DNA of 32,000 bases from Trichodesmium erythraeum IMS101 (GCF_000014265.1 NC_008312.1:90001-122000); one strand, 5' to 3'. Counted from the first letter of the stretch, positions 1-28,167 are shown. Notes: generated from the sequence alone by a model not told the origin. Numbers and translations: made by a program.

Positions 1-120
1 TGCCAAGGCCTATTAATGATGGGGATAAAATTATCGGCAAAACCTATATGACCATTGTAGTTGGAGAAAATACTAGACTTCGGCAATATCTTGCCAGATG
101 ACATCGAAAGACTCTTTGCT
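1..120 (+). pseudogene. 3' part of an unidentified ORF, frameshifted and split by the IS-like insertion at 121
   Basis: Frame 3 reads PRPINDGDKIIGKTYMTIVVGENTRLRQYLAR*, and frame 1 continues LPDDIERLFA. Removing 121-1730 (element plus one duplication copy) joins this in frame to TQNNSEKFKHLIRLLIQ*, with the stop at 1782-1784. Product not recognised. Confidence 0.3.
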
Positions 121-264
121 CTCACGGGGTGACAAGTAAGCTTAATGATAGATATAGTAATTATTTGAGAGAATAAATTGAATAATTAATTCAATTAAAA
201 AAGAAAGCTTATTGAGTTTGAGAGGTAGCGATCGCCAATTCACTCTTATCTACCATCTGAGTTG
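121..264. repeat. Left terminal inverted repeat of the IS-like element
   Basis: Aligns by eye over ~140 bp to the reverse complement of 1581-1721 with scattered mismatches. Both arms contain a HIP1 site (228-235 and 1608-1615). Confidence 0.8.
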
Positions 265-561
265 AATAATTATCCAAGCTGTATGAGAATATAATATTAT
301 TAAAAAACTCACATGAATTAATTTATTGTTAATCAAAAATTACAGTCTAATTAACCACTGTATTCATCGCTTTGAGTCCCCTTTGATAATATAGTAATTT
401 ATGAGGATTAAGGCTCATTAAATTTTCTACTAATCCCCAGATAAAATCATAATTTATTGCCCAATAAATCATAGATAATTCTACAAGAAAAATACTGTTT
501 CTTCTTTTTTTATTCTCACTTTTTCATTAGTTATTGATATATATTTTTAACCACTTTATTT

Positions 562-864
562 TTAATTTTTTTGGACTTGAAATGAACTAATTGTGTATAA
601 AATAGCTATTAATAAAATTAAATTACTTAATCTCGTTTCATTAGCCTTAGCTGATTTTAGATTGTAACCACAAGTTTTATATTCTTTAAAAATTGCTTCA
701 TTTCCCATTCTCTGACTATATATTTTTTTAATCTTTTCAGGAGATGATAAATTGGAGAGAATATACCATTTATCTAGAACATATTTTTGACAATATTTCT
801 GTTTTTTATACACGAGTAAATTATATGTTTTTGCCTTCAAAATTTTGGGTAATACATGCTTCAA
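562..864 (-). pseudogene. IS4-family transposase C-terminal fragment
   Basis: The 100-aa ORF contains YSQRMGNEAIFKEYKTCGYNLKSAKANETRLSNLILLIAI. This resembles the RWxIExxFKxxKxxGYNLE C-terminal signature of cyanobacterial IS4-type transposases. The N-terminal two thirds of the gene is absent or decayed. Confidence 0.5.
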
Positions 865-1580
865 TAATAGTTTAGTCTCACCGAAATTTACTTTTAATTC
901 TGAGGTTTTACAATATTTTTTACTTCGTTTAATTATCGTCGATTTTGTTTTTAGAAAACAAAATATACATCTTGCTTCTGATATTTTTTCAACCAGTGAG
1001 ATAGAAAAATACTATGGAACTATCTATCTGCTGTCATCATGATTTTCTGGCTTTTTAATAATCTTATAACTGGATAAATTACTGCTTTTTGTTCGGTTAA
1101 ATTACTAGCTCCTTATGAGTTAAAATTTTCCAATATAATGGTATTTTCCTCTTTTTTAAAGCTAAACTAATCATTAATATATTAGTATTTTGCCACTGAG
1201 TTATATCTAAAATTAATACTAATTCTGAGGAAATACTAAATAAATTTTCTATGATTTTTTTTAACTAAAGGAAACTAAAATAAAGGTAGGCTTAACTATT
1301 TTAAAGTTAAAAACCTTTCGCATAAGTTTTCGCTTACTTTCTAATTTTATTGGTAGGGAAAAATAATTACTTAATTTTGATATCTGTACAGTTTTATGTA
1401 CAGATACTTACGTATAATAATATTTGTAATGTTATTACTTGAGATGGACTCAATTTTTGCTTAATATGGCTTTTATAAAAGCCTAATATATTCACTTTTA
1501 TTTATTTTTTTTGTAATTACTAACCCTTTTTTATCATATTTTTAACTATTTTCAAAACTTTTTAAATGAATAAATAATAA

Positions 1581-1721
1581 ACTCAGATGGTGGATAAGAG
1601 TGAATTGGCGATCGCTACCTCCCAACCTCAATAAACTTTATTTTTAAATTGAATTATTATTTAACTTATTATCTCAAATAATTACTATACCTACTATTAA
1701 GCTGACTTGTCACCCCGTGAG
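1581..1721. repeat. Right terminal inverted repeat of the IS-like element
   Basis: Reverse complement of 121-264, from ...CAGATGGTGGATAAGAGTGAATTGGCGATCGCTACCTC... to ...ACTTGTCACCCCGTGAG. Confidence 0.8.
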
Positions 1722-2370
1722 CTCTTTGCTACTCAAAATAATTCCGAGAAGTTCAAGCATTTAATTCGCTTACTGATTCAGTAAACATCAATTTTGGGAT
1801 GTTCCAGTTCCTTATAGATATTCATAGCGATCGCTATAAACTCAAATCATACCTTAATTCACCAACGCCCATAAGCATTACTATAGTTATAGTCCCAGTT
1901 AAACTTTTGGTTTCTACTTCTATATTAGCTTGATACACTCTATCACTCTTGTGTTGAGAGTAGTGATCAATTATTACCTACCCCATCATATTGAGTAAAT
2001 ACGAATTTTCCTTGTTGGTTTAGTACTTTGCCCTCCAATGGTTATCCGAGGGAACAGATAGTTTGACTCACACTTGCTAAATAGACAAAAGTATGTAATG
2101 GCTACTTTTGACTAAATTCTTAAATGCTCGATCACCATTTACAAGACCGTCGAAAATTGAGCCTTTTGTCATATGAAACCAAGTGTTTTATAGACTTCTG
2201 CAAAAATAGTCAAATCAATACTATAACTATCTTAATTGGAGCGATCGCTATTTCAAGAAGATAGTTAATTTTTACAGTCTCATAGGTATTAGAGATAGTT
2301 AGTATTAATATATAGCCCTAATTATAGTATTTTCACTCAAGAATTTTTTCAGAAATTATTGGCAAATTTA

Positions 2371-2872
2371 TTAAGACAAAATAACCGTCCCTATTCCCAG
2401 TCTTACAAGTCCACAAATAGTCATTATTATTTGCGTATATTTATCAGAATTTAGCCTGAATCTTTCCTAGGCTACTCGAAATATTTTGAGTAATCTAATT
2501 ACATGTTCTACAAAAATTCTTTCAGATGCCAGCTCTTTATTTTGAGACTTTTCCTTACTGGTTAATTATTGAATAGGGGCTTTTTTTTTAGGCGTTTTTA
2601 TTGCTGGTTCTCCCACATAAGCTTTGTCCCTGGTAAATTTTTGCTCTTGATGGAATTTTTCTTGGGTTTCACGAAAAAAATTTATCTCACTTATTTGACC
2701 TAGTTTTCCAGCTTCGATATCAACAATATCTTTACCATTGAGTAACACAATCACCTGACTTTTTCTTGTATGACTTTTTTTCTTTCCTGAGTAATATTCT
2801 TTTTGTTTTTCAGATTTTTATAGCCTTTCTATACCCTGTTCATAGCTATCTATGATTAACTCAATATGCTGT
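2371..2872 (-). pseudogene. DDE_Tnp_4 (IS5/HARBI1-like) transposase relic, 5'-truncated and frameshifted
   Basis: The minus-strand translation reads LIIDSYEQGIERL*KSEKQKEYYSGKKKSHTRKSQVIVLLNGKDIVDIEAGKLGQISEINFFRE...FTRDKAYVGEPAIKTPKKK. After a frameshift it continues LTSKEKSQNKELASERIFVEHVIRLLKIFRVA*ERFRLNSDKYTQIIMTICGLVRL. The YYSGKKK, DKAY and VEH blocks are typical of this family. Confidence 0.6.
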
Positions 2873-2878
2873 TAAAAT

Positions 2879-3088
2879 TTACTTAATAATTTCTTTGTCA
2901 CTTGAGTTTTTTTTACCTATTCTAGGAAACTTGATGGTAACAATTACTTGTCCTGATATAATTTTTTTTTTACTATCAATTCCTAATTTTTGGTTAATTA
3001 TTTCTACTATTCCCATCTCATCAATTAGTCCTGCTAGTATTCCTAAGTGGTGGATATTTTTGACTTTTATTTCTTCGCTTAAAGACAT
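2879..3088 (-). pseudogene. N-terminal fragment of an IS1634-type (DUF4277-like) transposase
   Basis: MSLSEEIKVKNIHHLGILAGLIDEMGIVEIINQKLGIDSKKKIISGQVIV resembles the DHLGxVAGxxDExGI N-terminal domain of IS1634-family transposases. Only ~70 codons remain, and they abut the truncated element to the left. Confidence 0.45.
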
Positions 3089-3155
3089 TCTTTTTATATT
3101 AGAGTTGTTGGTAAATAAGTGAAAATAAGTTAAGTTAAGAAGAAATTGACGAAGA

Positions 3156-4030
3156 ATGCTAAATCTTAAACGGGCCTTAAAACAGGATAGGTTGCTCAGA
3201 GCATTAATACCGATTAAATCGTAAAGCATTTCAATCCTTACTCTTAACCTTTACTCAGGTATATGAGCAAACATTGAGGGATAAACCTCGTCAACGTTCT
3301 GTTGGATGAGGCCGTAAGGCTCGTTTACGGACTTTTGAGCACAAATAAATTTTTTATATTCTGTTCTATTTTAAATGCTACCCTACCTTTGATTTAGCTG
3401 GTATCTTGTTCGATATAGACCTTAGCCAGGCACATCATTGGGCTCATCGTTTACAGCCTATATTAGAAGCCGCCTTGGGAGAAAAAAAAGGCACTACCAG
3501 AACGCCAAATCAATAGTGCCCAAGCATTTATAGAGCGTTTCCCTGGAGTAGAACGAGTGGTAATGGATGGCACATAACGGCCAGTAAAACGGCCTACTGA
3601 CTCAGAAACACAAAAAATAAATTATTCGGGAAAAAAAAGGGTCTATCCCGTAAACATCTAGCAGCAGTAAACCAAAATAAACAAGTGCTGGTATTAAGCC
3701 AAGATAGAGTTGGACAGTTACATGACAAGAAATTCCTAGACGAAGAAAAGTTGATAGGAAATATACATGGGGAAATACCAATTGAAGTAGATACTAGCTT
3801 TCAAGGTATTCAACAACAGTATGAAAGTATCCGCATACCCCATAAAAAACCAGAGGGAGGAGAATTAACTCAACAGCAAAAGATCGAAAATAGGACATTG
3901 AGTCAATAAGCGGGTGATATGTGAAAATGACTTCGCGGGTGTCAAGCACTATAGGGCTGTCAATCAGATTTACCGTAATTATATTGATGGATTGGACTTT
4001 CAGCTTTGCTTTATACTCTGGACAGTTTGA
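3156..4030 (+). pseudogene. DDE_Tnp_4 (IS5-like) transposase pseudogene with several stops and frameshifts
   Basis: It starts MLNLKRALKQDRLLRAL. Later blocks across frames are FYFKCYPTFDLAGILFDIDLSQAHHWAHRLQPILEAALGEKK, INYSGKKK, QDRVGQLHDKKFLDEE, IPHKKPEGGELTQQQKIENRTLSQ and RVICENDFAGVKHYRAVNQIYRN, ending at TGA 4028-4030. Stops interrupt it at 3222 and elsewhere. Confidence 0.7.
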
Positions 4031-4235
4031 TATACTATAGAAGGGAAGATCCATGGCAAGTTCTGAGAAAGTTTTAGTAGTGAAAATGTGGTTGATAAAT
4101 CTGAAAAGCTCCGTAAGTAAAGAATAGGGCAGAAAAGGAAAAAATAGAACTATAATAATATTTGTATTTAGTGGGTGTCAATTTTTAAATTTTTGTTTCA
4201 AAATATTAAGTAAAGATGAGTTGAGAGTATTGTCT

Positions 4236-4430
4236 ATGTTTCCATTCTTCGTTAAGTCCTGCTGTGGTGGGGACTTTTTTCAACCAGAAACTCGTAAGGC
4301 CCACCAGGAGAATAAACTTAAATTCCTTAAGTGGATGCGAGATGACTTAGAAACCAGATTGGCCGGACTTAATGCGGCTATTCAAACTATAGAACGGCAA
4401 ATAAATCAAGATCAAGATCAAGCTTCCTAA
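4236..4430 (+). CDS. Small hypothetical protein (64 aa from the ATG)
   Basis: The ORF from ATG 4236 reads MFPFFVKSCCGGDFFQPETRKAHQENKLKFLKWMRDDLETRLAGLNAAIQTIERQINQDQDQAS. A GC-rich hairpin with a T tract follows it. The function is not recognised. Confidence 0.5.
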   Translation: MFPFFVKSCCGGDFFQPETRKAHQENKLKFLKWMRDDLETRLAGLNAAIQTIERQINQDQDQAS

Positions 4431-4489
4431 GCTATCTAGAGTAGCTCCAGCTTTATTTCTTAAACTTTAACTACAGTTATCTATTTGAT

Positions 4490-4520
4490 GGGGCGTAATA
4501 TTTTTCGCCCCTTACTTTTA
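4490..4520 (+). terminator. Rho-independent terminator candidate
   Basis: GGGGCG (4490-4495), a 10-nt loop, then CGCCCC (4506-4511), followed by TTACTTTTAT. Confidence 0.55.
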
Positions 4521-4682
4521 TCTCCTAAGATTGATTTTGTTACTTGAAAGTAGGTATCTCTGAGGTAAAGTAATGACTTGCAATGCCTCAAGCCATTCTA
4601 CTGTAGATGAAAGGCGCAAAGCAAATATATTAGCAAGACAGATTAAGATAATCTACTTATAAACACTTAAGAAAAAATCAAC

Positions 4683-12723: not shown

Positions 12724-13311
12724 TTAGTCATCCACAATTTGAGCCCAATCTGGGAAAGAAGGAGGAAAAAAATTAATATCGTACTCAGACTCTTCCCACT
12801 CATCAACCCATAATGGCACTACCCCTACCCCTTGTATAGGAGTTCTTGAGAATACCCTTTCCCTTGATTCAATAGTGTGAAATATCTGTTTAAGGGTATC
12901 TCCTAAATTAAGATTGAAACTTAAGAGTTCGTCCAATTCAGGGTCAAGTCGTTTGACTCTTTGTTTATCATCCTCAACCCACAAAAGTTTTAAAGACTTG
13001 AGGGATCTTGGACTAAGCTGAGAGCGATAATAAACACGCTTAAGTTGAGCTACAGGCTCCAAGCTTCTTTCTACTCTCCTAATTTGCTGTAACCGAAGAA
13101 AGTGCCACTCTGCCAAATGTTTTCGCTCTTCAGGAGGTATTTTCCCTTTGCTAGTAGCGTGTTGAAAGGCATATCTGGCACAACTACATCCAAGATTAGC
13201 TAACAAATGGATTAACTGTTTCTCTTTCGGAGTTGCTTGTCTTCTTTCTGCAGTTCTCGTAATAAGCCTTTTTCTGCGTGTAGTAGTTGTTGTATCCATT
13301 ATTTTGGTCAA
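12724..13311 (-). CDS. Hypothetical protein (195 aa) with a basic N-terminus and an acidic C-terminus
   Basis: This is a clean ORF that looks less AT-rich than its surroundings. It has an N-terminal TTTTRRKRLITRTAERRQ and a C-terminal WVDEWEESEYD...DWAQIVDD. No family was recognised. Confidence 0.6.
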   Translation of the reverse strand: MTKIMDTTTTTRRKRLITRTAERRQATPKEKQLIHLLANLGCSCARYAFQHATSKGKIPPEERKHLAEWHFLRLQQIRRVERSLEPVAQLKRVYYRSQLSPRSLKSLKLLWVEDDKQRVKRLDPELDELLSFNLNLGDTLKQIFHTIESRERVFSRTPIQGVGVVPLWVDEWEESEYDINFFPPSFPDWAQIVDD

Positions 13312-13449: not shown

Positions 13450-13650
13450 TTATGGATTTGTCTCTATGACCTCTGCGTTTCCATCTTCATCATTTCCTTC
13501 GTAAGGTGGTTTATCACTAATTAATATTTGACTCTCTTCAATCGTTGTCCCATAAGATAGCCCTAAGTTCCAGGTAGTAGCCTTTGGCATTTGGCCAAAT
13601 GTTAAGCCTGCGGAGGCTATTAATCCGAAAGCGATAATATTCTGTTTCAT
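13450..13650 (-). CDS. Small ORF (66 aa) with a signal-peptide-like N-terminus; coding status uncertain
   Basis: MKQNIIAFGLIASAGLTFGQ... followed by an acidic tail. Its start codon lies in sequence resembling the 5' end of the queE relics (GTTTCATGGTAG), so it may be a fortuitous ORF. Confidence 0.3.
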   Translation of the reverse strand: MKQNIIAFGLIASAGLTFGQMPKATTWNLGLSYGTTIEESQILISDKPPYEGNDEDGNAEVIETNP

Positions 13651-13772
13651 GGTAGTAGATGAACCCTGTCTAGTGCTTGGAATTAACCACTAATGCTTTT
13701 GCCACCTGTAAAAAATGGGTTTTTGCAAAAGCCCTCTTGTATTCCAAAGAATCAGTCTGTAATTATATAAGA

Positions 13773-14022
13773 AACATAGGCACAACCTGATGGATTACAA
13801 AAAACTGGAATTGAGGTATTAGTAGTCTTATCACTATATTCTCCTAAATCCTAATATTTGGGATGTGGATTATAAACCATTAGGGAGTTAAGCCATCAGG
13901 TAACTAGTCCATCTAGGAGTTGTCCATCAGGGGCATCTACTTTTCATCTAACTATCAGGGCGTATCTTTCATCTGCAGTTCTAAAATCGCTGTCTATTCT
14001 TTCAATAGGCAGTATTTTTTTT
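13773..14022 (+). ncRNA. Candidate spacer RNA, unit A
   Basis: Promoter-like TTGTAT-17-TAATTA at 13737-13765. It also has the ACCTGATGG/CCATCAGGT pairing arms, three CCATC..GG motifs, the hairpin 13989-14012 and an 8-T run. The boundaries are guesses. Confidence 0.3.
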
Positions 14023-14063
14023 ATGATACCAATTCCTGAACTTAATACTCAGATTGATTGTAA

Positions 14064-14591
14064 TTATGTCATACCCAAATATTTATGTAATTGTATAAAT
14101 AGTCGGCAATGAGGATATTCCTGAAGTAATTGTTGGACTAATGGTAAAGTTAGATCATAATTATACTACTCTGCTTATAGGAAAACAGGAGTCTTATTCT
14201 TTACTAATAAAATCTTACTATAAAATTCTAATTCTTTACCTGTTTCTATAACCAATTTGATTTTTGAAGCTCTTGTCCACATTGACGGGACAATTGGATA
14301 TTTATGACTAATGTGTTCTTTAGGGCTAAGAGTTACCCAAGGGTTAGGGGAAATATTTTGCCAGTAGCAACAGTTGGTTTCAATTATTACTTGTCTATCG
14401 GTCTATAAGGTTTGAAAGTTTGAGGTTGACCTCTTCTACTCATAGCTCTATCAACATACGCTAGTATCATGGGTCAGAGCACCTACGACTAGGCCACCTG
14501 CAAGAGGAATAAAATCTGCTGCTGTACTTGCCTAATAACCTATAGTTTTTGGGTATGTTTCATGGTGGAGACCGATTAAATTTCCTGTAAT
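14064..14591 (-). pseudogene. queE relic, unit A (most diverged 3' part)
   Basis: Homologous to queE along its length but ends HKYLGMT*. It has additional disruptions in the 3' third, and its 5' part is near-identical to the other relics. Confidence 0.8.
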
Positions 14592-14735
14592 TTCTCAGGT
14601 TTTCAGAAGTAGGGCTCAAGAGTGGCCCGAAGAAATCTCCCCCAAAATCAATACTAACTTTTCATCATCAGTAAAAACTGGGTTTTTGCAAAAGACCTCT
14701 TGTATTCTAAAGAATGAGTCTGTAATTATATAATA

Positions 14736-14995
14736 AGCATAGGCACAACCTGATGGATTACAAAAACCACAAAGTGAGGTGTTAGTAGTCGTATCATTTA
14801 TCTTCTTCTAAAGTCCTACTATTTGGGCTCTTAATTATTAACAATTAAAACAATTAGGGAGTTAAGCCATCAGGTAACTAGTCCATCTAGGAGTTGTCCA
14901 TCAAGGGCATCTAATTTTCATTTAACTATTCAGGGCGTATCTTTCATCTGCAGTTCTAAAATCGCTGTCTATTGTCCCAATAGACAGCATTTTCT
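14736..14995 (+). ncRNA. Candidate spacer RNA, unit B
   Basis: Same module as unit F, shifted. The terminator hairpin is at 14964-14988. Confidence 0.3.
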
Positions 14996-15036
14996 AATTA
15001 TACCATTTTTTCAGTCTCATGCTCATGATTATTTAA

Positions 15037-15433
15037 TTATTTTATGCCTAAATATTTATGTAATTGTATAGATAGTCGGCAATGAGAATATTCCCGAAGT
15101 AATTTTTGGACTAATGGTAGAGTGAAATCACGGTTATACGACTCTGGTTGTAGGAAAACAGGAGTCTGATTCTTTACTAATAAAATCTTACTATAAAATT
15201 CTAATTCTTTACCTGTTTCTATAACCAATTTGATTTCTGAAGCTCTTGTCCACATTGACGGGACAAGTTGACCTCTTCTACTCATAGCTCTATCAACATA
15301 CGCTAGTATCATGGGTCAGAGCACCTACGACTAGGCCACCTGCAAGAGGAATAAAATCTGCTGCTGTACTTGCCTAATAACCTATAGTTTTTGGGCATGT
15401 TTCATGGTAGAGACCGATTAAATTTCCTGTAAT
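15037..15433 (-). pseudogene. queE relic, unit B (extra 131-bp deletion)
   Basis: Same as units C-F except that GGGACAA is joined directly to GTTGACC. The join creates a fortuitous 91-aa ORF. Confidence 0.85.
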
Positions 15434-15577
15434 TTCTCAGGTTTTCAGAAGTAGGTATCAAGAGTGGCCCGAAGAAATCTCCCCCAAAATCAATACTAAC
15501 TTTTCATCATCAGTAAAAACTGGGTTTTTGCAAAAGACCTCTTGTATTCTAAAGAATGAGTCTGTAATTATATAAGA

Positions 15578-15837
15578 AGCATAGGCACAACCTGATGGAT
15601 TACAAAAACCACAAAGTGAGGTGTTAGTAGTCGTATCATTTATCTTCTTCTAAAGTCCTACTATTTGGGCTCTTAATTATTAACAATTAAAACAATTAGG
15701 GAGTTAAGCCATCAGGTAACTAGTCCATCTAGGAGTTGTCCATCAAGGGCATCTAATTTTCATTTAACTATTCAGGGCGTATCTTTCATCTGCAGTTCTA
15801 AAATCGCTGTCTATTGTCCCAATAGACAGCATTTTCT
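15578..15837 (+). ncRNA. Candidate spacer RNA, unit C
   Basis: Same module. The hairpin is at 15806-15830. Confidence 0.3.
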
Positions 15838-15878
15838 AATTATACCATTTTTTCAGTCTCATGCTCATGATTATTTAA

Positions 15879-16406
15879 TTATTTTATGCCTAAATATTTA
15901 TGTAATTGTATAGATAGTCGGCAATGAGAATATTCCTGAAGTAATTTTTGGACTAATGGTAGAGTGAAATCACGGTTATACGACTCTGGTTGTAGGAAAA
16001 CAGGAGTCTTATTCTTTACTAATAAAATCTTACTATAAAATTCTAATTCTTTACCTGTTTCTATAACCAATTTGATTTTTGAAGCTCTTGTCCACATTGA
16101 CGGGACAATTGGATATTTATGACTAATGTGTTCTTTAGGGCTAAGAGTTACCCAAGGGTTAGGGGAAATATTTTGCCAGTAGCAACAGTTGGTTTCAATT
16201 ATTACTTGTCTATTGGTCTATAAGGTTTGAAAGTTTGAGGTTGACCTCTTCTACTCATAGCTCTATCAACATACGCTAGTATCATGGGTCAGAGCACCTA
16301 CTACTAGGCCACCTGCAAGAGGAATAAAATCTGCTGCTGTACTTGCCTAATAACCTATAGTTTTTGGGTATGTTTCATGGTAGAGACCGATTAAATTTCC
16401 TGTAAT
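15879..16406 (-). pseudogene. queE relic, unit C
   Basis: 528 bp versus 624 bp for the intact gene between equivalent landmarks. The radical-SAM cysteine codons are lost, and only the 72-codon C-terminal frame is open. Confidence 0.9.
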
Positions 16407-16550
16407 TTCTCAGGTTTTCAGAAGTAAGGATAAAGAGTGGCCCGAAGAAATATTCCCCAAAATCAATACTAACTTTTCATCATCAGTAAAAACTGGGTTT
16501 TTGCAAAAGACCTCTTGTATTCTAAAGAATGAGTCTGTAATTATATAAGA

Positions 16551-16810
16551 AGCATAGGCACAACCTGATGGATTACAAAAACCACAAAGTGAGGTGTTAG
16601 TAGTCGTATCATTTATCTTCTTCTAAAGTCCTACTATTTGGGCTCTTAATTATTAACAATTAAAACAATTAGGGAGTTAAGCCATCAGGTAACTAGTCCA
16701 TCTAGGAGTTGTCCATCAAGGGCATCTAATTTTCATTTAACTATTCAGGGCGTATCTTTCATCTGCAGTTCTAAAATCGCTGTCTATTGTCCCAATAGAC
16801 AGCATTTTCT
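16551..16810 (+). ncRNA. Candidate spacer RNA, unit D
   Basis: Same module. The hairpin is at 16779-16803. Confidence 0.3.
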
Positions 16811-16851
16811 AATTATACCATTTTTTCAGTCTCATGCTCATGATTATTTAA

Positions 16852-17379
16852 TTATTTTATGCCTAAATATTTATGTAATTGTATAGATAGTCGGCAATGA
16901 GAATATTCCCGAAGTAATTTTTGGACTAATGGTAGAGTGAAATCACGGTTATACGACTCTGGTTGTAGGAAAACAGGAGTCTTATTCTTTACTAATAAAA
17001 TCTTACTATAAAATTCTAATTCTTTACCTGTTTCTATAACCAATTTGATTTTTGAAGCTCTTGTCCACACTGATGAGACAATTGGATATTTATGACTAAT
17101 GTGTTCTTTAGGGCTAAGAGTTACCCAAGGGTTAGGGGAAATATTTTGCTAGTAGCAACAGTTGGTTTCAATTATTACTTGTCTATCGGTCTATAAGGTT
17201 TGAAAGTTTGAGGTTGACCTCTTCTACTCATAGCTCTATCAACATACGCTAGTATCATGGGTCAGACTACCTACTACTAGGCCACCTGCAAGAGGAATAA
17301 AATCTGCTGCTGTACCTGCCTAATAACCTATAGTTTTTGGGTATGTTTCATGGTAGAGACCGATTAAATTTCCTGTAAT
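16852..17379 (-). pseudogene. queE relic, unit D
   Basis: Same lesions as unit C. It carries CACACTGATGAGACA instead of CACATTGACGGGACA. Confidence 0.9.
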
Positions 17380-17523
17380 TTCTCAGGTTTTCAGAAGTAG
17401 GTATCAAGAGTGGCCCGAAGAAATCTCCCCCAAAATCAATACTAACTTTTCATCATCAGTAAAAACTGGGTTTTTGCAAAAGACCTCTTGTATTCTAAAG
17501 AATGAGTCTGTAATTATATAAGA

Positions 17524-17783
17524 AGCATAGGCACAACCTGATGGATTACAAAAACCACAAAGTGAGGTGTTAGTAGTCGTATCATTTATCTTCTTCTAAA
17601 GTCCTACTATTTGGGCTCTTAATTATTAACAATTAAAACAATTAGGGAGTTAAGCCATCAGGTAACTAGTCCATCTAGGAGTTGTCCATCAAGGGCATCT
17701 AATTTTCATTTAACTATTCAGGGCGTATCTTTCATCTGCAGTTCTAAAATCGCTGTCTATTGTCCCAATAGACAGCATTTTCT
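17524..17783 (+). ncRNA. Candidate spacer RNA, unit E
   Basis: Same module. The hairpin is at 17752-17776. Confidence 0.3.
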
Positions 17784-17824
17784 AATTATACCATTTTTTC
17801 AGTCTCATGCTCATGATTATTTAA

Positions 17825-18352
17825 TTATTTTATGCCTAAATATTTATGTAATTGTATAGATAGTCGGCAATGAGAATATTCCCGAAGTAATTTTTGGACT
17901 AATGGTAGAGTGAAATCACGGTTATACGACTCTGGTTGTAGGAAAACAGGAGTCTTATTCTTTACTAATAAAATCTTACTATAAAATTCTAATTCTTTAC
18001 CTGTTTCTATAACCAATTTGATTTTTGAAGCTCTTGTCCACACTGATGAGACAATTGGATATTTATGACTAATGTGTTCTTTAGGGCTAAGAGTTACCCA
18101 AGGGTTAGGGGAAATATTTTGCCAGTAGCAACAGTTGGTTTCAATTATTACTTGTCTATCGGTCTATAAGGTTTGAAAGTTTGAGGTTGACCTCTTCTAC
18201 TCATAGCTCTATCAACATACGCTAGTATCATGGGTCAGAGCACCTACGACTAGGCCACCTGCAAGAGGAATAAAATCTGCTGCTGTACCTGCCTAATAAC
18301 CTATAGTTTTTGGGTATGTTTCATGGTGGAGACCGATTAAATTTCCTGTAAT
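17825..18352 (-). pseudogene. queE relic, unit E
   Basis: Same as unit D. Confidence 0.9.
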
Positions 18353-18460
18353 TTCTCAGGTTTTCAGAAGTAGGTATCAAGAGTGGCCCGAAGAAATCTC
18401 CCCCAAAATCAATACTAACTTTTCATCATCAGTAAAAACTGGGTTTTTGCAAAAGACCTC

Positions 18461-18489
18461 TTGTATTCTAAAGAATGAGTCTGTAATTA
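18461..18489 (+). promoter_or_regulatory. Sigma70-like promoter candidate for the spacer RNA (reference copy; present in all seven units)
   Basis: TTGTAT (18461-18466), a 17-bp spacer, then TAATTA (18484-18489). The same string is conserved even in the diverged unit A (13737-13765). Confidence 0.3.
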
Positions 18490-18496
18490 TATAAGA

Positions 18497-18756
18497 AGCA
18501 TAGGCACAACCTGATGGATTACAAAAACCACAAAGTGAGGTGTTAGTAGTCGTATCATTTATCTTCTTCTAAAGTCCTACTATTTGGGCTCTTAATTATT
18601 AACAATTAAAACAATTAGGGAGTTAAGCCATCAGGTAACTAGTCCATCTAGGAGTTGTCCATCAAGGGCATCTAATTTTCATTTAACTATTCAGGGCGTA
18701 TCTTTCATCTGCAGTTCTAAAATCGCTGTCTATTGTCCCAATAGACAGCATTTTCT
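18497..18756 (+). ncRNA. Candidate spacer RNA, unit F (reference copy)
   Basis: ACCTGATGG (18509-18517) is complementary to CCATCAGGT (18628-18636). CCATCAGG, CCATCTAGG and CCATCAAGG lie at 18628, 18644 and 18659. The hairpin is GCTGTCTATT-GTCCC-AATAGACAGC (18725-18749), followed by ATTTTCT. Confidence 0.3.
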
Positions 18757-18797
18757 AATTATACCATTTTTTCAGTCTCATGCTCATGATTATTTAA

Positions 18798-19325
18798 TTA
18801 TTTTATGCCTAAATATTTATGTAATTGTATAGATAGTCGGCAATGAGAATATTCCCGAAGTAATTTTTGGACTAATGGTAGAGTGAAATCACGGTTATAC
18901 GACTCTGGTTGTAGGAAAACAGGAGTCTTATTCTTTACTAATAAAATCTTACTATAAAATTCTAATTCTTTACCTGTTTCTATAACCAATTTGATTTTTG
19001 AAGCTCTTGTCCACACTGATGAGACAATTGGATATTTATGACTAATGTGTTCTTTAGGGCTAAGAGTTACCCAAGGGTTAGGGGAAATATTTTGCCAGTA
19101 GCAACAGTTGGTTTCAATTATTACTTGTCTATCGGTCTATAAGGTTTGAAAGTTTGAGGTTGACCTCTTCTACTCATAGCTCTATCAACATACGCTAGTA
19201 TCATGGGTCAGAGCACCTACGACTAGGCCACCTGCAAGAGGAATAAAATCTGCTGCTGTACCTGCCTAATAACCTATAGTTTTTGGGTATGTTTCATGGT
19301 GGAGACCGATTAAATTTCCTGTAAT
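18798..19325 (-). pseudogene. queE relic, unit F
   Basis: Same as unit D. Confidence 0.9.
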
Positions 19326-19469
19326 TTCTCAGGTTTTCAGAAGTAGGTATCAAGAGTGGCCCGAAGAAATCTCCCCCAAAATCAATACTAACTTTTCATC
19401 ATCAGTAAAAACTGGGTTTTTGCAAAAGACCTCTTGTATTCTAAAGAATGAGTCTGTAATTATATAAGA

Positions 19470-19729
19470 AGCATAGGCACAACCTGATGGATTACAAAAA
19501 CCACAAAGTGAGGTGTTAGTAGTCGTATCATTTATCTTCTTCTAAAGTCCTACTATTTGGGCTCTTAATTATTAACAATTAAAACAATTAGGGAGTTAAG
19601 CCATCAGGTAACTAGTCCATCTAGGAGTTGTCCATCAAGGGCATCTAATTTTCATTTAACTATTCAGGGCGTATCTTTCATCTACAGTTCTAAAATCGCT
19701 GTCTATTGTCCCAATAGGCAGCATTTTCT
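19470..19729 (+). ncRNA. Candidate spacer RNA, unit G (convergent with the intact queE)
   Basis: Same module. The hairpin at 19698-19722 has one A-to-G change that gives a U-G pair on the plus strand. Confidence 0.3.
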
Positions 19730-19770
19730 AATTATACCATTTTTTCAGTCTCATGCTCATGATTATTTAA

Positions 19771-20394
19771 TTATTTTATGCCTAAATATTTGTGTAATTG
19801 TATAGATAGTCGGCAATGAGGATATTCCTGAAGTAATTTTTGGACTAATGGTAGAGTGAAATCACGGTTATACCACTCTGGTTGTAAGAAAACAGGAGTC
19901 TGATTCTTTAATAATAAAATCTTACTATAAAATTCTAATTCTTTACCTGTTTCTATAACCAATTTGATTTCTGAAGCTCTTGTCCACATTGACGGGACAA
20001 TTGGATATTTATGACTAATGTGTTCTTTAGGGCTAAGAGTTACCCAAGCGTTAGGGGAAATATTTTGCCAGTAGCAACCGGAGGTTTCAATAGAAACTTG
20101 TCTACCTGTCGCTTCTATTCTGTTTATTAAAGCTGGTAGTTGTTTATGAATAAAAGGTTCGCCACCAGAAATAACAACTCTAGGAGAAAATAACTCATTA
20201 ATTAACTTATCCAAAGTTTGAATTTGACGAGGTAAACTAATGCCTCCATCTGCATAACCAGTATCACAATAATGACAACCTACTGGGCAACCTGCAAGAC
20301 GAATAAAATCTACTGGTGTACCTGCCCAATAACCTTCTCCTTGAATAGTTTTTTGGAATGTTTCATGGATAGGAATAATTAAATTTTCTGTCAT
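19771..20394 (-). CDS. queE: 7-carboxy-7-deazaguanine synthase (radical SAM; queuosine/preQ0 pathway)
   Basis: From ATG 20394 it reads [45 protein letters not shown], which includes the CxxxCxxC cluster and the QGEG motif. The protein is 207 aa. The upstream MLVLCC... extension in the ORF track was not used. Confidence 0.9.
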
Positions 20395-20606
20395 TTTTAA
20401 GATTTTAAGAACTAGGGAGTAGGAATTAGAGAGTAGGGAAGATAGGCAGCAGAGAACAAGCAAAAAAATAAATATAAGTTGTCATTAACCTTGGCGCGCA
20501 ACTACACAAAATTATTGAAAAAGTACGATGTTTATACATAGATTAGATTTCAGTTTCTTGATAAGTATCATTTATTTTGTTTACCCATTTATATTAATTC
20601 CTGATT

Positions 20607-25131: not shown

Positions 25132-25994
25132 TTAATTAGATTGAATATAATTTTCAAAATTATCTTGAATTACTCTTTCATATTCAAAGGAAGGAATCTC
25201 AAATAGCCTATCTTGTACTTGCTCAGTTTTTACAGGATAATTTATCAATTTCTCTAATTTAAACGGATATCTAATCGGGCGATCGCTCAAGGCATATCTT
25301 ATTTATTGAATACTAGAAAGTTGACTGGCTCCATATACTTGAAGTTTCCCTTTTTCATAGCAAACACTAGCTTCAATTGTATACTAAAAAAGTCTAGCTA
25401 TTTCATGTTGTATATCTTGGTCATTAACATTTTTTCTAATTATATATTGATTGCCTAAATATTTTAAAAAGTTAGAATAAATTAGGAAAAAAAGTAAGGG
25501 AAGATGACCAAAAATATCATGCCAAAGATTGAGAAGTCGAGAAAAATTAATATCAGTATCCGATCTGATAAAAGTTGCTATGGCAAAATAACGATGAGAA
25601 AGCAGATAAAAAAATGTGTCTGCTTCTAATAATCCTATAACTGGCCATAATTGCTATCCAATTTGTTCTTGTAAAAAGTCTGAAAGATGATTAATATTAG
25701 GAATATCTTGAATCAAATTTTTGATTTTTGCTAAACCTGCAATAAATTTTTCATTGCTCGACTTTCAATAGTTTCTAATTGTGTATTTAAAGGTTGTTTC
25801 CAATTACGATGGGCTTGGGTTTTATACTGATAAAAGTTCTTTTCCAGCAATAAATTTTTCATTGCTCGACTTTCAATAGTTTCTAATTGTGTATTTAAAA
25901 GTTGTTTCCAATTACGATGGGCTTGGGTTTTATACTCATAAAAGTTCTTTTCCAGCCTTTCATAAAGTAATTTTTCCAAAGTTATGGATTGCAT
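25132..25994 (-). pseudogene. phhA: Phenylalanine-4-hydroxylase pseudogene
   Basis: The minus strand reads ...HRNWKQLLNTQLETIESRAMKNLL..GLAKIKNLIQDIPNINHLSDFLQEQIG*QLWPVIGLLEADTFFYLLSHRYFAIATFIRSDTDINF..LWHDIFGHLPLL, and later LQVYGASQLSS. This is the aromatic amino-acid hydroxylase catalytic core, including HDxFGH. It has in-frame stops, frameshifts and a 108-bp internal duplication. Confidence 0.75.
25739..25954. repeat. 2 x 108-bp tandem duplication inside the phhA pseudogene
   Basis: GCAATAAATTTTTCATTGCTCGACTTTCAATAG... begins at 25739 and again at 25847. It encodes the duplicated EKNFY[E/Q]YKTQAHRNWKQ[L/P]LNTQLETIESRAMKNLL. Confidence 0.9.
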
Positions 25995-27106: not shown

Positions 27107-27210
27107 TATAAACAATTCGTAAAAAATGCTCATAAATAATAAAAATAATTTCTCAAAATTAACTAATATAATTTTTTTTAAAAAAATGGTTTTTTTTGAT
27201 ATGATTAAAT

Positions 27211-27774
27211 CTAAAAATTTGGGTAATAAATTTAATTAAAAAAATGGTTAATCAATATAAAATAATTACTAATTATTAGTATTGATTGATGATTTATGGT
27301 TACTATAACTATGATGATAGAGCTAAACTAATATACTTAATTGTAGGTAATAATTGTCATATTTTGAACTAGGAGTAGGAACGGGATTACTTGCAGAAAA
27401 GTACATGAAACTTGACAATACTTGTGAGTTTACGGGGGTTGATATTACACTATGGTTTCTGTAAATTACTAAAAAATGTTTGGGAAATAAAGCTAAAAAT
27501 TTGGGTAATAAATTTAATTAAAAAAATGGTTAATCAATATAAAATAATTACTAATTATTAGTATTGATTGATGATTTATGGTTACTATAACTATGATGAT
27601 AGAGCTAAACTAAGATACTTAATTGTAGGTAATAATTGTCATATTTTGAACTAGGAGTAGGAACGGGATTACTTGCAGAAAAGTACATGAAACTTGACAA
27701 TACTTGTGAGTTTACGGGGGTTGATATTACACTATCGTTTATGTAAATTACTAAAAAATGTTTGGGAAATAAAG
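27211..27774. repeat. 2 x 282-bp tandem duplication
   Basis: CTAAAAATTTGGGTAATAAATTTAATTAAAAAAATGGTTAATC... starts at 27211 and again at 27493. The two copies differ at a few positions. Confidence 0.9.
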
Positions 27775-28167
27775 CTAAGTTAATTGTAGCTGATGCTCTA
27801 ACAATGGAACTAAATACAACTTTTGATGTTGCTATATCAAATTGAGGAGTTTGGCTATTTGTTAGTTGTGGCGATCGCTTAGAGTTAGTCAGTCATATTC
27901 CTGATGTTGAAACTAACTATTAATAACTCAAAAATTTAGTTGGTCATTTACGAAAAGGAGGTTCATTTTTTGAAATATACAAAAGTTTGGAATTGATATC
28001 GTAAAAAAAAGCTATTGCCTTAAGAAAAGGCTGAATTTTTAGCTCAAGAAAAAGTAACTATTATCTTGTTTAAGTTGGATACTTATCAGAAATCATTCAA
28101 TGAAGTAGGGTTTGATTTTCAAGGTATTAATAATGATAAAAGCTTGGTAATCTACAACAATAAATAG
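27211..28167 (+). pseudogene. Class I SAM-dependent methyltransferase pseudogene (5' part tandemly duplicated)
   Basis: Reads ILELGVGTGLLAEKYMKLDNTCEFTGVDITLSFM*ITKKCLGNKAKLIVADALTMELNTTFDVAISN*GVWLF...LVGHLRKGGSFF. This is the motif I E/DxGxGxG with the post-I and motif II/III layout. It has stops and frameshifts and ends at 28165-28167. Confidence 0.65.

Follow-up and report, generated by a model that had tools for sequence, protein, structure and literature searches.

The NsiR1 locus of Nostocales, located upstream of hetF, consists of tandem, independently transcribed small RNA (sRNA) genes in a filamentous cyanobacterium, with a promoter and a terminator in every repeat. The NsiR1 RNA is ~60 nt long and NtcA/HetR-dependent, with heterocyst-specific expression, and the repeat units measure roughly 100-200 bp without a co-amplified pseudogene. 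Here we analyzed a stretch of 32,000 nucleotides (the window) from Trichodesmium erythraeum IMS101, which contains, at about 103.7-110.4 kb of the genome, a tandem array of six near-identical noncoding RNA (ncRNA) genes interleaved with six dead copies of queE, the gene for 7-carboxy-7-deazaguanine synthase. A diverged ncRNA copy, copy 0, and the functional queE occupy opposite flanks of this array.

An array of more than 6 kb with seven repeats (ncf103766, ncf104733, ncf105575-ncf109467) has been described in IMS101 (Pfreundt et al. 2014, Sci Rep 4:6187, Fig. 3 and Table 1). Each repeat was reported to hold, in reverse orientation, part of a duplicated Tery_0080 and to produce a forward-strand ncRNA of ~260 nt, as verified by differential RNA sequencing (dRNA-seq) and northern blot. 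The array ncRNA accounted for 44.7% of all primary reads and was thus the most abundant transcript of the cell. At the transcription start site (TSS), repeat 1 has a T where repeats 2-6 have a G; the next 216 bases are identical. T-start reads numbered 6.58 M and G-start reads 30.55 M, a ratio of 1:4.65. The part of the repeat outside queE had no similarity in GenBank, and an "alien" sequence acquired via mobile elements was suggested; no further copy was found elsewhere in the IMS101 genome, and transposases were noted upstream of repeat 0 (Pfreundt et al. 2014). The array was summarized again by Kopf & Hess 2015, and our literature search found no follow-up on this RNA after that date. The array as such was hence already known, and what is added here is an orthologue family of the RNA gene and evidence from natural populations. 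We regard it as highly probable that the locus is the published one and that it arose through an amplification whose selected cargo was the RNA gene.

Identity and layout of the array

Published TSSs were placed in the window with an offset of 89,999, the window corresponding to genome positions 90,000-121,999 in forward orientation. The published TSS spacing of 967/842/973x4 compares with 963/842/973x4 for the repeats in the window, and the 4-nt mismatch at repeat 0 arises because the TSS is shifted there: the position aligned with the TSSs of the other copies is 13771, versus the published TSS at 13767. The T/G polymorphism at the TSS, the ~216 identical bases, the presence of six partial and one intact Tery_0080, and the ~260-nt length all agree as well. 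It is therefore virtually certain that the window locus is the tandem ncRNA array of Pfreundt et al. 2014, with the same coordinates after the offset, the same spacing and polymorphism, and the same reverse-strand Tery_0080 copies. An initial annotation of the window, made from the sequence alone, knew of no earlier description of such a locus and thereby overlooked both this publication and its later summary. Beyond the published description, Tery_0080 is identified here as queE, the relics are found to retain a decayed 5' part as well, and the remainder of the repeat is recognized as a conserved gene.

The seven-unit structure proposed in the initial annotation was recovered. A 24-nt landmark occurred exactly seven times, at 13708, 14671, 15513, 16486, 17459, 18432 and 19405, where 0 occurrences are expected by chance, and a repeat search returned unit spacings of 973/842/973x4 with the outermost copy at 963, all in register. 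Tandem Repeats Finder did not report the array in the window because its longest period is 500. Units were read on the minus strand and aligned with MAFFT, and the relics were also translated; this yielded one intact queE and six dead copies, as had been proposed. An open reading frame (ORF) scan likewise agreed that no plus-strand ORF of at least 60 aa lies within the array. The near-identity claimed for units C-F held at 98-100% pairwise identity, and so did the greater divergence of the left edge, where the ncRNA of copy 0 is 86% and the 3' part of relic A 92-95% identical to the others.

The features of the locus are given below in window coordinates; TSSs are those of Pfreundt et al. 2014.

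13767..14021, + strand: ncRNA copy 0 ("repeat 0"), diverged edge copy and positional orthologue of the single-copy gene of relatives; published TSS 103766f, terminator hairpin 13989-14013 followed by a T-run, nhmmer match 13771-14020, 86% identical to copies 1-6
14734..14996, + strand: ncRNA copy 1, TSS base T; published TSS 104733f, terminator 14964-14988
15576..15838, + strand: ncRNA copy 2; published TSS 105575f, terminator 15806-15830, nhmmer match
16549..16811, + strand: ncRNA copy 3; published TSS 106548f, terminator 16779-16803
17522..17784, + strand: ncRNA copy 4; published TSS 107521f, terminator 17752-17776
18495..18757, + strand: ncRNA copy 5; published TSS 108494f, terminator 18725-18749
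19468..19730, + strand: ncRNA copy 6, convergent with the intact queE; published TSS 109467f, terminator 19698-19722
19771..20394, - strand: intact queE (Tery_0080; 7-carboxy-7-deazaguanine synthase, 207 aa), 624 bp; identical to ABG49588.1 / WP_011609987.1 of IMS101
14064..14591, - strand: queE relic A, edge relic with a 3' part more diverged than in the other relics; from alignment, translation with stops, and identities
15037..15433, - strand: queE relic B, with an extra 131-bp internal deletion; from repeat search, alignment and translation
15879..16406, - strand: queE relic C; from alignment, translation and identities
16852..17379, - strand: queE relic D; from alignment, translation and identities
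17825..18352, - strand: queE relic E; from alignment, translation and identities
18798..19325, - strand: queE relic F; from alignment, translation and identities
13450..13650, - strand: orf66, small hypothetical protein without an NCBIfam match, divergent from ncRNA copy 0 and conserved left neighbor of the ncRNA gene in all relatives

The ncRNA gene and its orthologues

Each "spacer" between queE copies is a complete gene on the plus strand. Upstream of the TSS lie a -10-like extended element, TGTAATTAT (15563-15571 in copy 2), and a -35-like TTGTAT (15542-15547 in copy 2), both read by eye. The promoter was assigned from the published TSS and this reading; a sigma-70 consensus scan did not call it, because the -35 element matches at only 3/6 positions. 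All seven units (7/7) carry an intrinsic terminator on the plus strand 250-263 nt past the TSS, consisting of a GC-containing hairpin of 11 bp with a T-run behind it. Expression of the ncRNA was taken from Pfreundt et al. 2014, the window analysis covering the distance from TSS to terminator; counted to the end of the terminator tail, this distance is 251-263 nt in all seven units and agrees with the published northern band of ~260 nt. The terminator ends ~40 nt short of the queE stop codon, so that ncRNA and queE converge. RNA positions 1 (T in copy 1, G in copies 2-6), 217 and 251 are the sole sites of difference among copies 1-6, and the differences between copy 6 and copies 2-5 are confined to positions 217 and 251.

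A near-palindrome, GGGTTTTTGCAAAAGCCC, is located at about -54 to -37 of the TSS in every unit (for example 13717-13734 and 15522-15539) and is kept in all orthologues. It could be the binding site of a regulator; read on the minus strand, it could also serve as a terminator that protects orf66 against antisense read-through. A motif common to the orf66 leader and the ncRNA was probed with CAGGGNNCATCTAC, for which the leader itself was the sole match; the resemblance needs an indel and was dropped.

Relatives carry the same gene. The ~370 bp spanning promoter and ncRNA showed about 81-88% identity in most orthologues, which come from the Trichodesmium metagenome-assembled genomes (MAGs) R02/R03/R04, many Okeania and Dapis genomes, and other Microcoleaceae MAGs; in three more distant MAGs the identity was only 66-71%. 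The gene was also present in 10 JGI metagenome contigs. An nhmmer profile found exactly one full ncRNA copy in almost all orthologous loci, thereby answering the question, raised in the initial annotation, of whether the spacer exists as a single copy elsewhere: relatives normally have one copy between queE and orf66. No ncRNA copy was found by nhmmer downstream of queE in Lyngbya, Limnoraphis or Pseudanabaena. All of the more than 30 homologues are located between queE and orf66, which speaks against a mobile or satellite element scattered over unrelated loci, one of the cases that had been named as fatal to the proposal. The comparison of sequences shows that the ncRNA gene is old, strongly conserved and normally single-copy in the Trichodesmium/Okeania/Dapis clade. 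With orthologues in present genomes, the "alien" mobile-element origin suggested by Pfreundt et al. 2014 is overturned.

Next to orf66 lies orf195 (12724-13311, minus strand), whose protein is 82-94% identical across Trichodesmium, Okeania and metagenome contigs and has no NCBIfam match; it is a conserved, clade-specific protein adjoining the ncRNA locus.

Two relatives depart from the single-copy state. In an uncultured Microcoleaceae-like MAG (L030, 10658-11335), two tandem ncRNA copies with a period of 352 nt lie directly downstream of queE without a queE relic; their RNA parts are 94% and their promoter parts 82% identical. In this pair, only the RNA gene was duplicated, and independently of the array. 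In Trichodesmium MAG_R02 (L014, 4442-6000), a ~2 kb stretch from queE to the full ncRNA contains three decayed ncRNA fragments, with no queE relic detected, possibly left over from an older duplication in a different Trichodesmium species. Together, the pair and the fragments indicate that the ncRNA gene has been duplicated more than once.

The orthologue alignment (A1) displays long invariant blocks, in particular CCATCAGG....TAGTCCATCTAGGAGTT, and five degenerate internal repeats of ~16 nt, YCCAUCAGGGAGUUA, with Shine-Dalgarno-like AGGAG/GGGAG cores. In the consensus fold from RNAalifold, 98% of cells were paired over 47 pairs. Compensatory change was seen in only 4 pairs, a number reached by 48/500 shuffles, the sequences being highly conserved. 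Rfam covariance models gave no match over the whole window at the gathering score and nothing relevant on the ncRNA strand at E <= 10, NsiR1 included; a scan of the window for tRNA and tmRNA found none. The family is conserved and outside Rfam.

The transcript might instead be a small mRNA, given that many Okeania/Dapis orthologues (e.g. L016 and L021) have a 19-aa ORF with a GTG start, VLVVLLLxSPQSxYLGCGD, at +45. This ORF is absent from 7/7 T. erythraeum copies as well as from OkeSIO3I5 and MAG08tar and is therefore probably fortuitous. No conserved ORF was found in the ncRNA, copy 0 has no ORF of at least 15 codons, and variable columns were spread over the codon positions as 45/42/42, without 3-periodicity. 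The published screen of transcripts from noncoding TSSs (nTSSs) by blastX and RNAcode also retained this RNA as an ncRNA (Pfreundt et al. 2014). We consider a coding function barely credible and reject it.

queE relics and variation among the units

The intact QueE retains the CPVGCHYC motif and has a Radical_SAM domain in Pfam; its top NCBIfam matches are QueE models, all under their curated cut-offs. The closest QueE genes belong to Trichodesmium, Okeania and Dapis. These relatives, together with the exact identity to the IMS101 QueE, place the organism in Trichodesmium (Microcoleaceae/Oscillatoriales) and not in the Nostocales setting assumed in the initial annotation. The same two lines of evidence rejected a Richelia/Nostocales endosymbiont as the source, which the low GC content and low coding density had at first made plausible.

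Five relics measure 528 bp and relic B 397 bp, the further 131-bp deletion in unit B accounting for the 842-bp spacing. The relics failed as QueE: the ATG is gone in all of them (they read ITGNL...), all contain several in-frame stops, and, as the initial annotation had reported, the cysteines of CxxxCxxC are replaced by AGGLVVGALTHDT, unit D reading ...VVGSLTHDT. The lesions common to all relics were also found as reported, with different sizes from the proposed 9 and ~87 bp: the alignment contains a 9-bp gap, gaps of ~91 bp and insertions of 4 bp, for a net change of -96. Identity to the intact gene is unevenly distributed, only ~75% over the 5' ~200 bp and 94-97% over the 3' ~330 bp, and the relics are hence mosaics.

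With the queE copies dead, selection for QueE dosage is excluded as an explanation of the array, as the initial annotation had argued. Its further proposal, that the unit was already dead before amplification, is one possibility; gene conversion spreading the lesions gives the same pattern. Judging from the alignment, the 5' part of the intact queE may be only 75% like the relics because it is the part in which conversion would kill the gene. In ocean metagenomes, 72-aa ORFs from relic 3' ends (P0010, P0012-P0015; L065-L074) are mosaics of intact-type E, Q, W, P and relic-type K, K, S, S. Such mosaic environmental ORFs suggest that queE and its relics still exchange sequence by gene conversion in the wild.

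Within the array, ncRNA copies 1-6 share 99-100% identity among themselves and 86% with copy 0. Such a homogeneous center with diverged edges fits the unequal crossing-over or concerted evolution proposed earlier. Variable columns among units A-F numbered 3/381 in ncRNA plus promoter versus 34/461 in junction plus relic (Fisher p = 8e-7), and the same contrast gave p = 0.002-0.014 when the edge units were excluded. Lower variation of the ncRNA than of the relic is the signature expected for a selected RNA cargo with a passenger relic. The view that the spacer is the maintained part is correct, and published experiments had already demonstrated an ncRNA gene in every spacer; conservation across genera and less polymorphism than in the relics add to this.

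The unit could also be kept for reasons linked to queE, through regulation of queE or queuosine synthesis by the relics or by antisense transcription, or as a cis element of queE/orf66. The synteny of queE, ncRNA and orf66 is strict in all relatives, and the terminator, ~40 nt from the queE stop, could by eye work bidirectionally. Yet the ncRNA overlaps neither queE nor orf66, the relics lack the start codon and the radical-SAM cysteines and accumulate substitutions faster than the ncRNA, and the ncRNA gene of L030 was duplicated without queE. Moreover, neither a preQ1-type nor any other riboswitch was found by Rfam in the window or on the ncRNA strand. We therefore hold a queE-linked role to be very unlikely and retain the ncRNA gene as the candidate cargo.

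Copy number, origin and role of the array

The intact queE is encoded on the finished, Sanger-sequenced IMS101 chromosome of 7,750,108 bp, and the RNA read ratio of 1:4.65 (Pfreundt et al. 2014) fits 1 + 5 copies. Each of two MEGAHIT k127 contigs, assembled from different Tara samples, measures 1100 nt and has identical 127-nt ends, thus representing a closed cycle of 973 nt. Other environmental contigs of 1155-1358 nt have the order relic-ncRNA-relic, and the relic 3' end in L008 matches units C-F exactly and differs from unit A. Assembled sequences of this kind indicate that the tandem array occurs in wild populations.

On an alternative view, the seven units would be an expansion introduced by assembly, or the true locus would consist of the intact queE and one relic. 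A single relic is what Tara contigs L001-L005 display, with 1386 bp from queE to orf66, and the short-read Tara contigs L006, L007 and L009 break ~200 bp past queE. However, de Bruijn assemblers collapse near-identical tandem units, typically to one, which accounts for both the single-relic and the broken contigs. Against an artefact also stand the finished Sanger chromosome, the distinct units tagged by single-nucleotide polymorphisms (SNPs) and other marks (the T-type TSS, the unit B deletion, the unit F SNPs), the read ratio, the self-closing k127 contigs of period 973, the relic-ncRNA-relic contigs, and the relic end of L008. The exact copy count aside, an assembly artefact can hence be given next to no weight, and an array of tandem units is retained.

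Two further repeats were found in the window. At 25739-25956, a 108-bp x2 tandem repeat (98%) lies inside an 87-aa ORF (25731-25994, minus strand); one copy is present in L003 and L006 and two in L001, L004 and L005, so that either the copy number is polymorphic or the assembly collapsed. An AT-rich, non-coding stretch at 27206-27778 contains a 282-bp x2 tandem repeat (98%), of which L001 and L006 appear to carry a single copy. Together with the array, the 32-kb window contains three young tandem duplications. Coding density is very low at positions 1-4600, where the ORFs are short and broken, and the product of 562-864 (minus strand; residues ...YSQRMGNEAIFKEYK...) resembles, by eye, part of a transposase. 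The low coding density and the candidate fragment are consistent with the transposases upstream of repeat 0 and with an insertion sequence (IS)-rich, ~60%-coding genome (Pfreundt et al. 2014).

The ancestral order, still present in relatives, is orf195 <- orf66 <- | -> ncRNA (~250 nt, with its own promoter and intrinsic terminator) | <- queE. In the alignment, the unit begins ~70-140 nt before the ncRNA TSS and, at its other boundary, reaches ~110 nt beyond the queE ATG on the upstream side of that gene; the first duplication hence included both genes. We infer that the array started with a tandem duplication of a ~1.07-kb segment holding the whole ncRNA gene and the convergent queE. One queE would then have stayed functional while the redundant one decayed, after which the unit would have multiplied, with unequal crossing-over and gene conversion keeping the copies alike. 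The array multiplies the dosage of an autonomously and strongly transcribed, conserved ncRNA gene, with the relics as passengers, and we think it likely that the amplification serves ncRNA dosage.

Alternatively, the array could be a neutral, strain-level repeat expansion, the huge RNA output following incidentally from the multiplication of a strong promoter. Repeats, IS elements and non-coding DNA abound in Trichodesmium genomes; relatives have one copy, and the dead queE would simply have been dragged along. The 108 bp x2 and 282 bp x2 duplications are young and lie in the same window, and some Tara contigs have one relic. Neutral expansion accords less well with an ncRNA that is about 81-88% identical in most cross-genus orthologues and has long invariant blocks, with the significantly lower variability of ncRNA and promoter than of the relics within the array, and with the 973-nt cycle in several independent ocean samples. 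In addition, a useless RNA at 45% of primary transcription would presumably be costly for an oligotroph. We judge neutral expansion to be unlikely and favor selection for the RNA gene.

Regarding function, we tentatively suggest that the ncRNA may act by binding or sequestration, in the manner of CsrB or 6S, and not as an sRNA of the classical base-pairing kind, because of its extreme abundance, a near-invariant constraint on primary sequence and not on pairing, and the repeated Shine-Dalgarno-like motifs. The fuller proposal is equally speculative: that it is the founding member of an uncurated ncRNA family in Trichodesmium, Okeania, Dapis and related Microcoleaceae, with a fixed place between queE and orf66, sequestering through the five Shine-Dalgarno-like repeats, with an adaptive six-fold dose in T. 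erythraeum.

Several points weigh against selection for RNA dosage and against the sequestering role. The single-relic contigs L001-L005 are most simply explained by repeat collapse but could reflect real variation, and the copy number of 7 derives from the Sanger-finished genome and the RNA read ratio, not from long reads. With one copy in relatives, the amplification could be neutral. The predicted fold fits the alignment, but its covariation is weak and lends no structural support to a particular mechanism; what speaks for the sponge idea is confined to abundance and motif repetition. In addition, Trichodesmium lacks a genetic system (Kopf & Hess 2015).

The array RNA is by far the most abundant transcript of Trichodesmium. 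Trichodesmium is the source of a large share of the tropical ocean's new nitrogen. The alignment of more than 30 orthologues provides a basis for a family model and for defining invariant motifs and candidate interaction sites.

Among known systems, the NsiR1 array named in the initial annotation is an apt analogue of the IMS101 array: both consist of tandem sRNA genes, with a separate promoter and terminator in every repeat. The two RNAs have no sequence similarity, no Rfam family having matched the IMS101 ncRNA. CsrB/RsmZ and 6S resemble the IMS101 ncRNA in being very abundant RNAs. In CsrB/RsmZ, several short motifs with GGA recur that look like Shine-Dalgarno sites, and the five degenerate repeats in the alignment of the IMS101 ncRNA may be comparable. 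The likeness is a functional analogy only, as the absence of an Rfam match indicates no homology, and, unlike in the CsrB type, several motifs of the IMS101 ncRNA are predicted by RNAalifold inside helices and not in loops. In its architecture, the IMS101 array is similar to ribosomal DNA (rDNA) arrays and the LDR repeats of E. coli, with head-to-tail units, a homogenized center, diverged edges and internal deletion variants. It differs from both in that the putative selected cargo is a small ncRNA gene and that each unit drags along a pseudogene of the neighboring enzyme gene.

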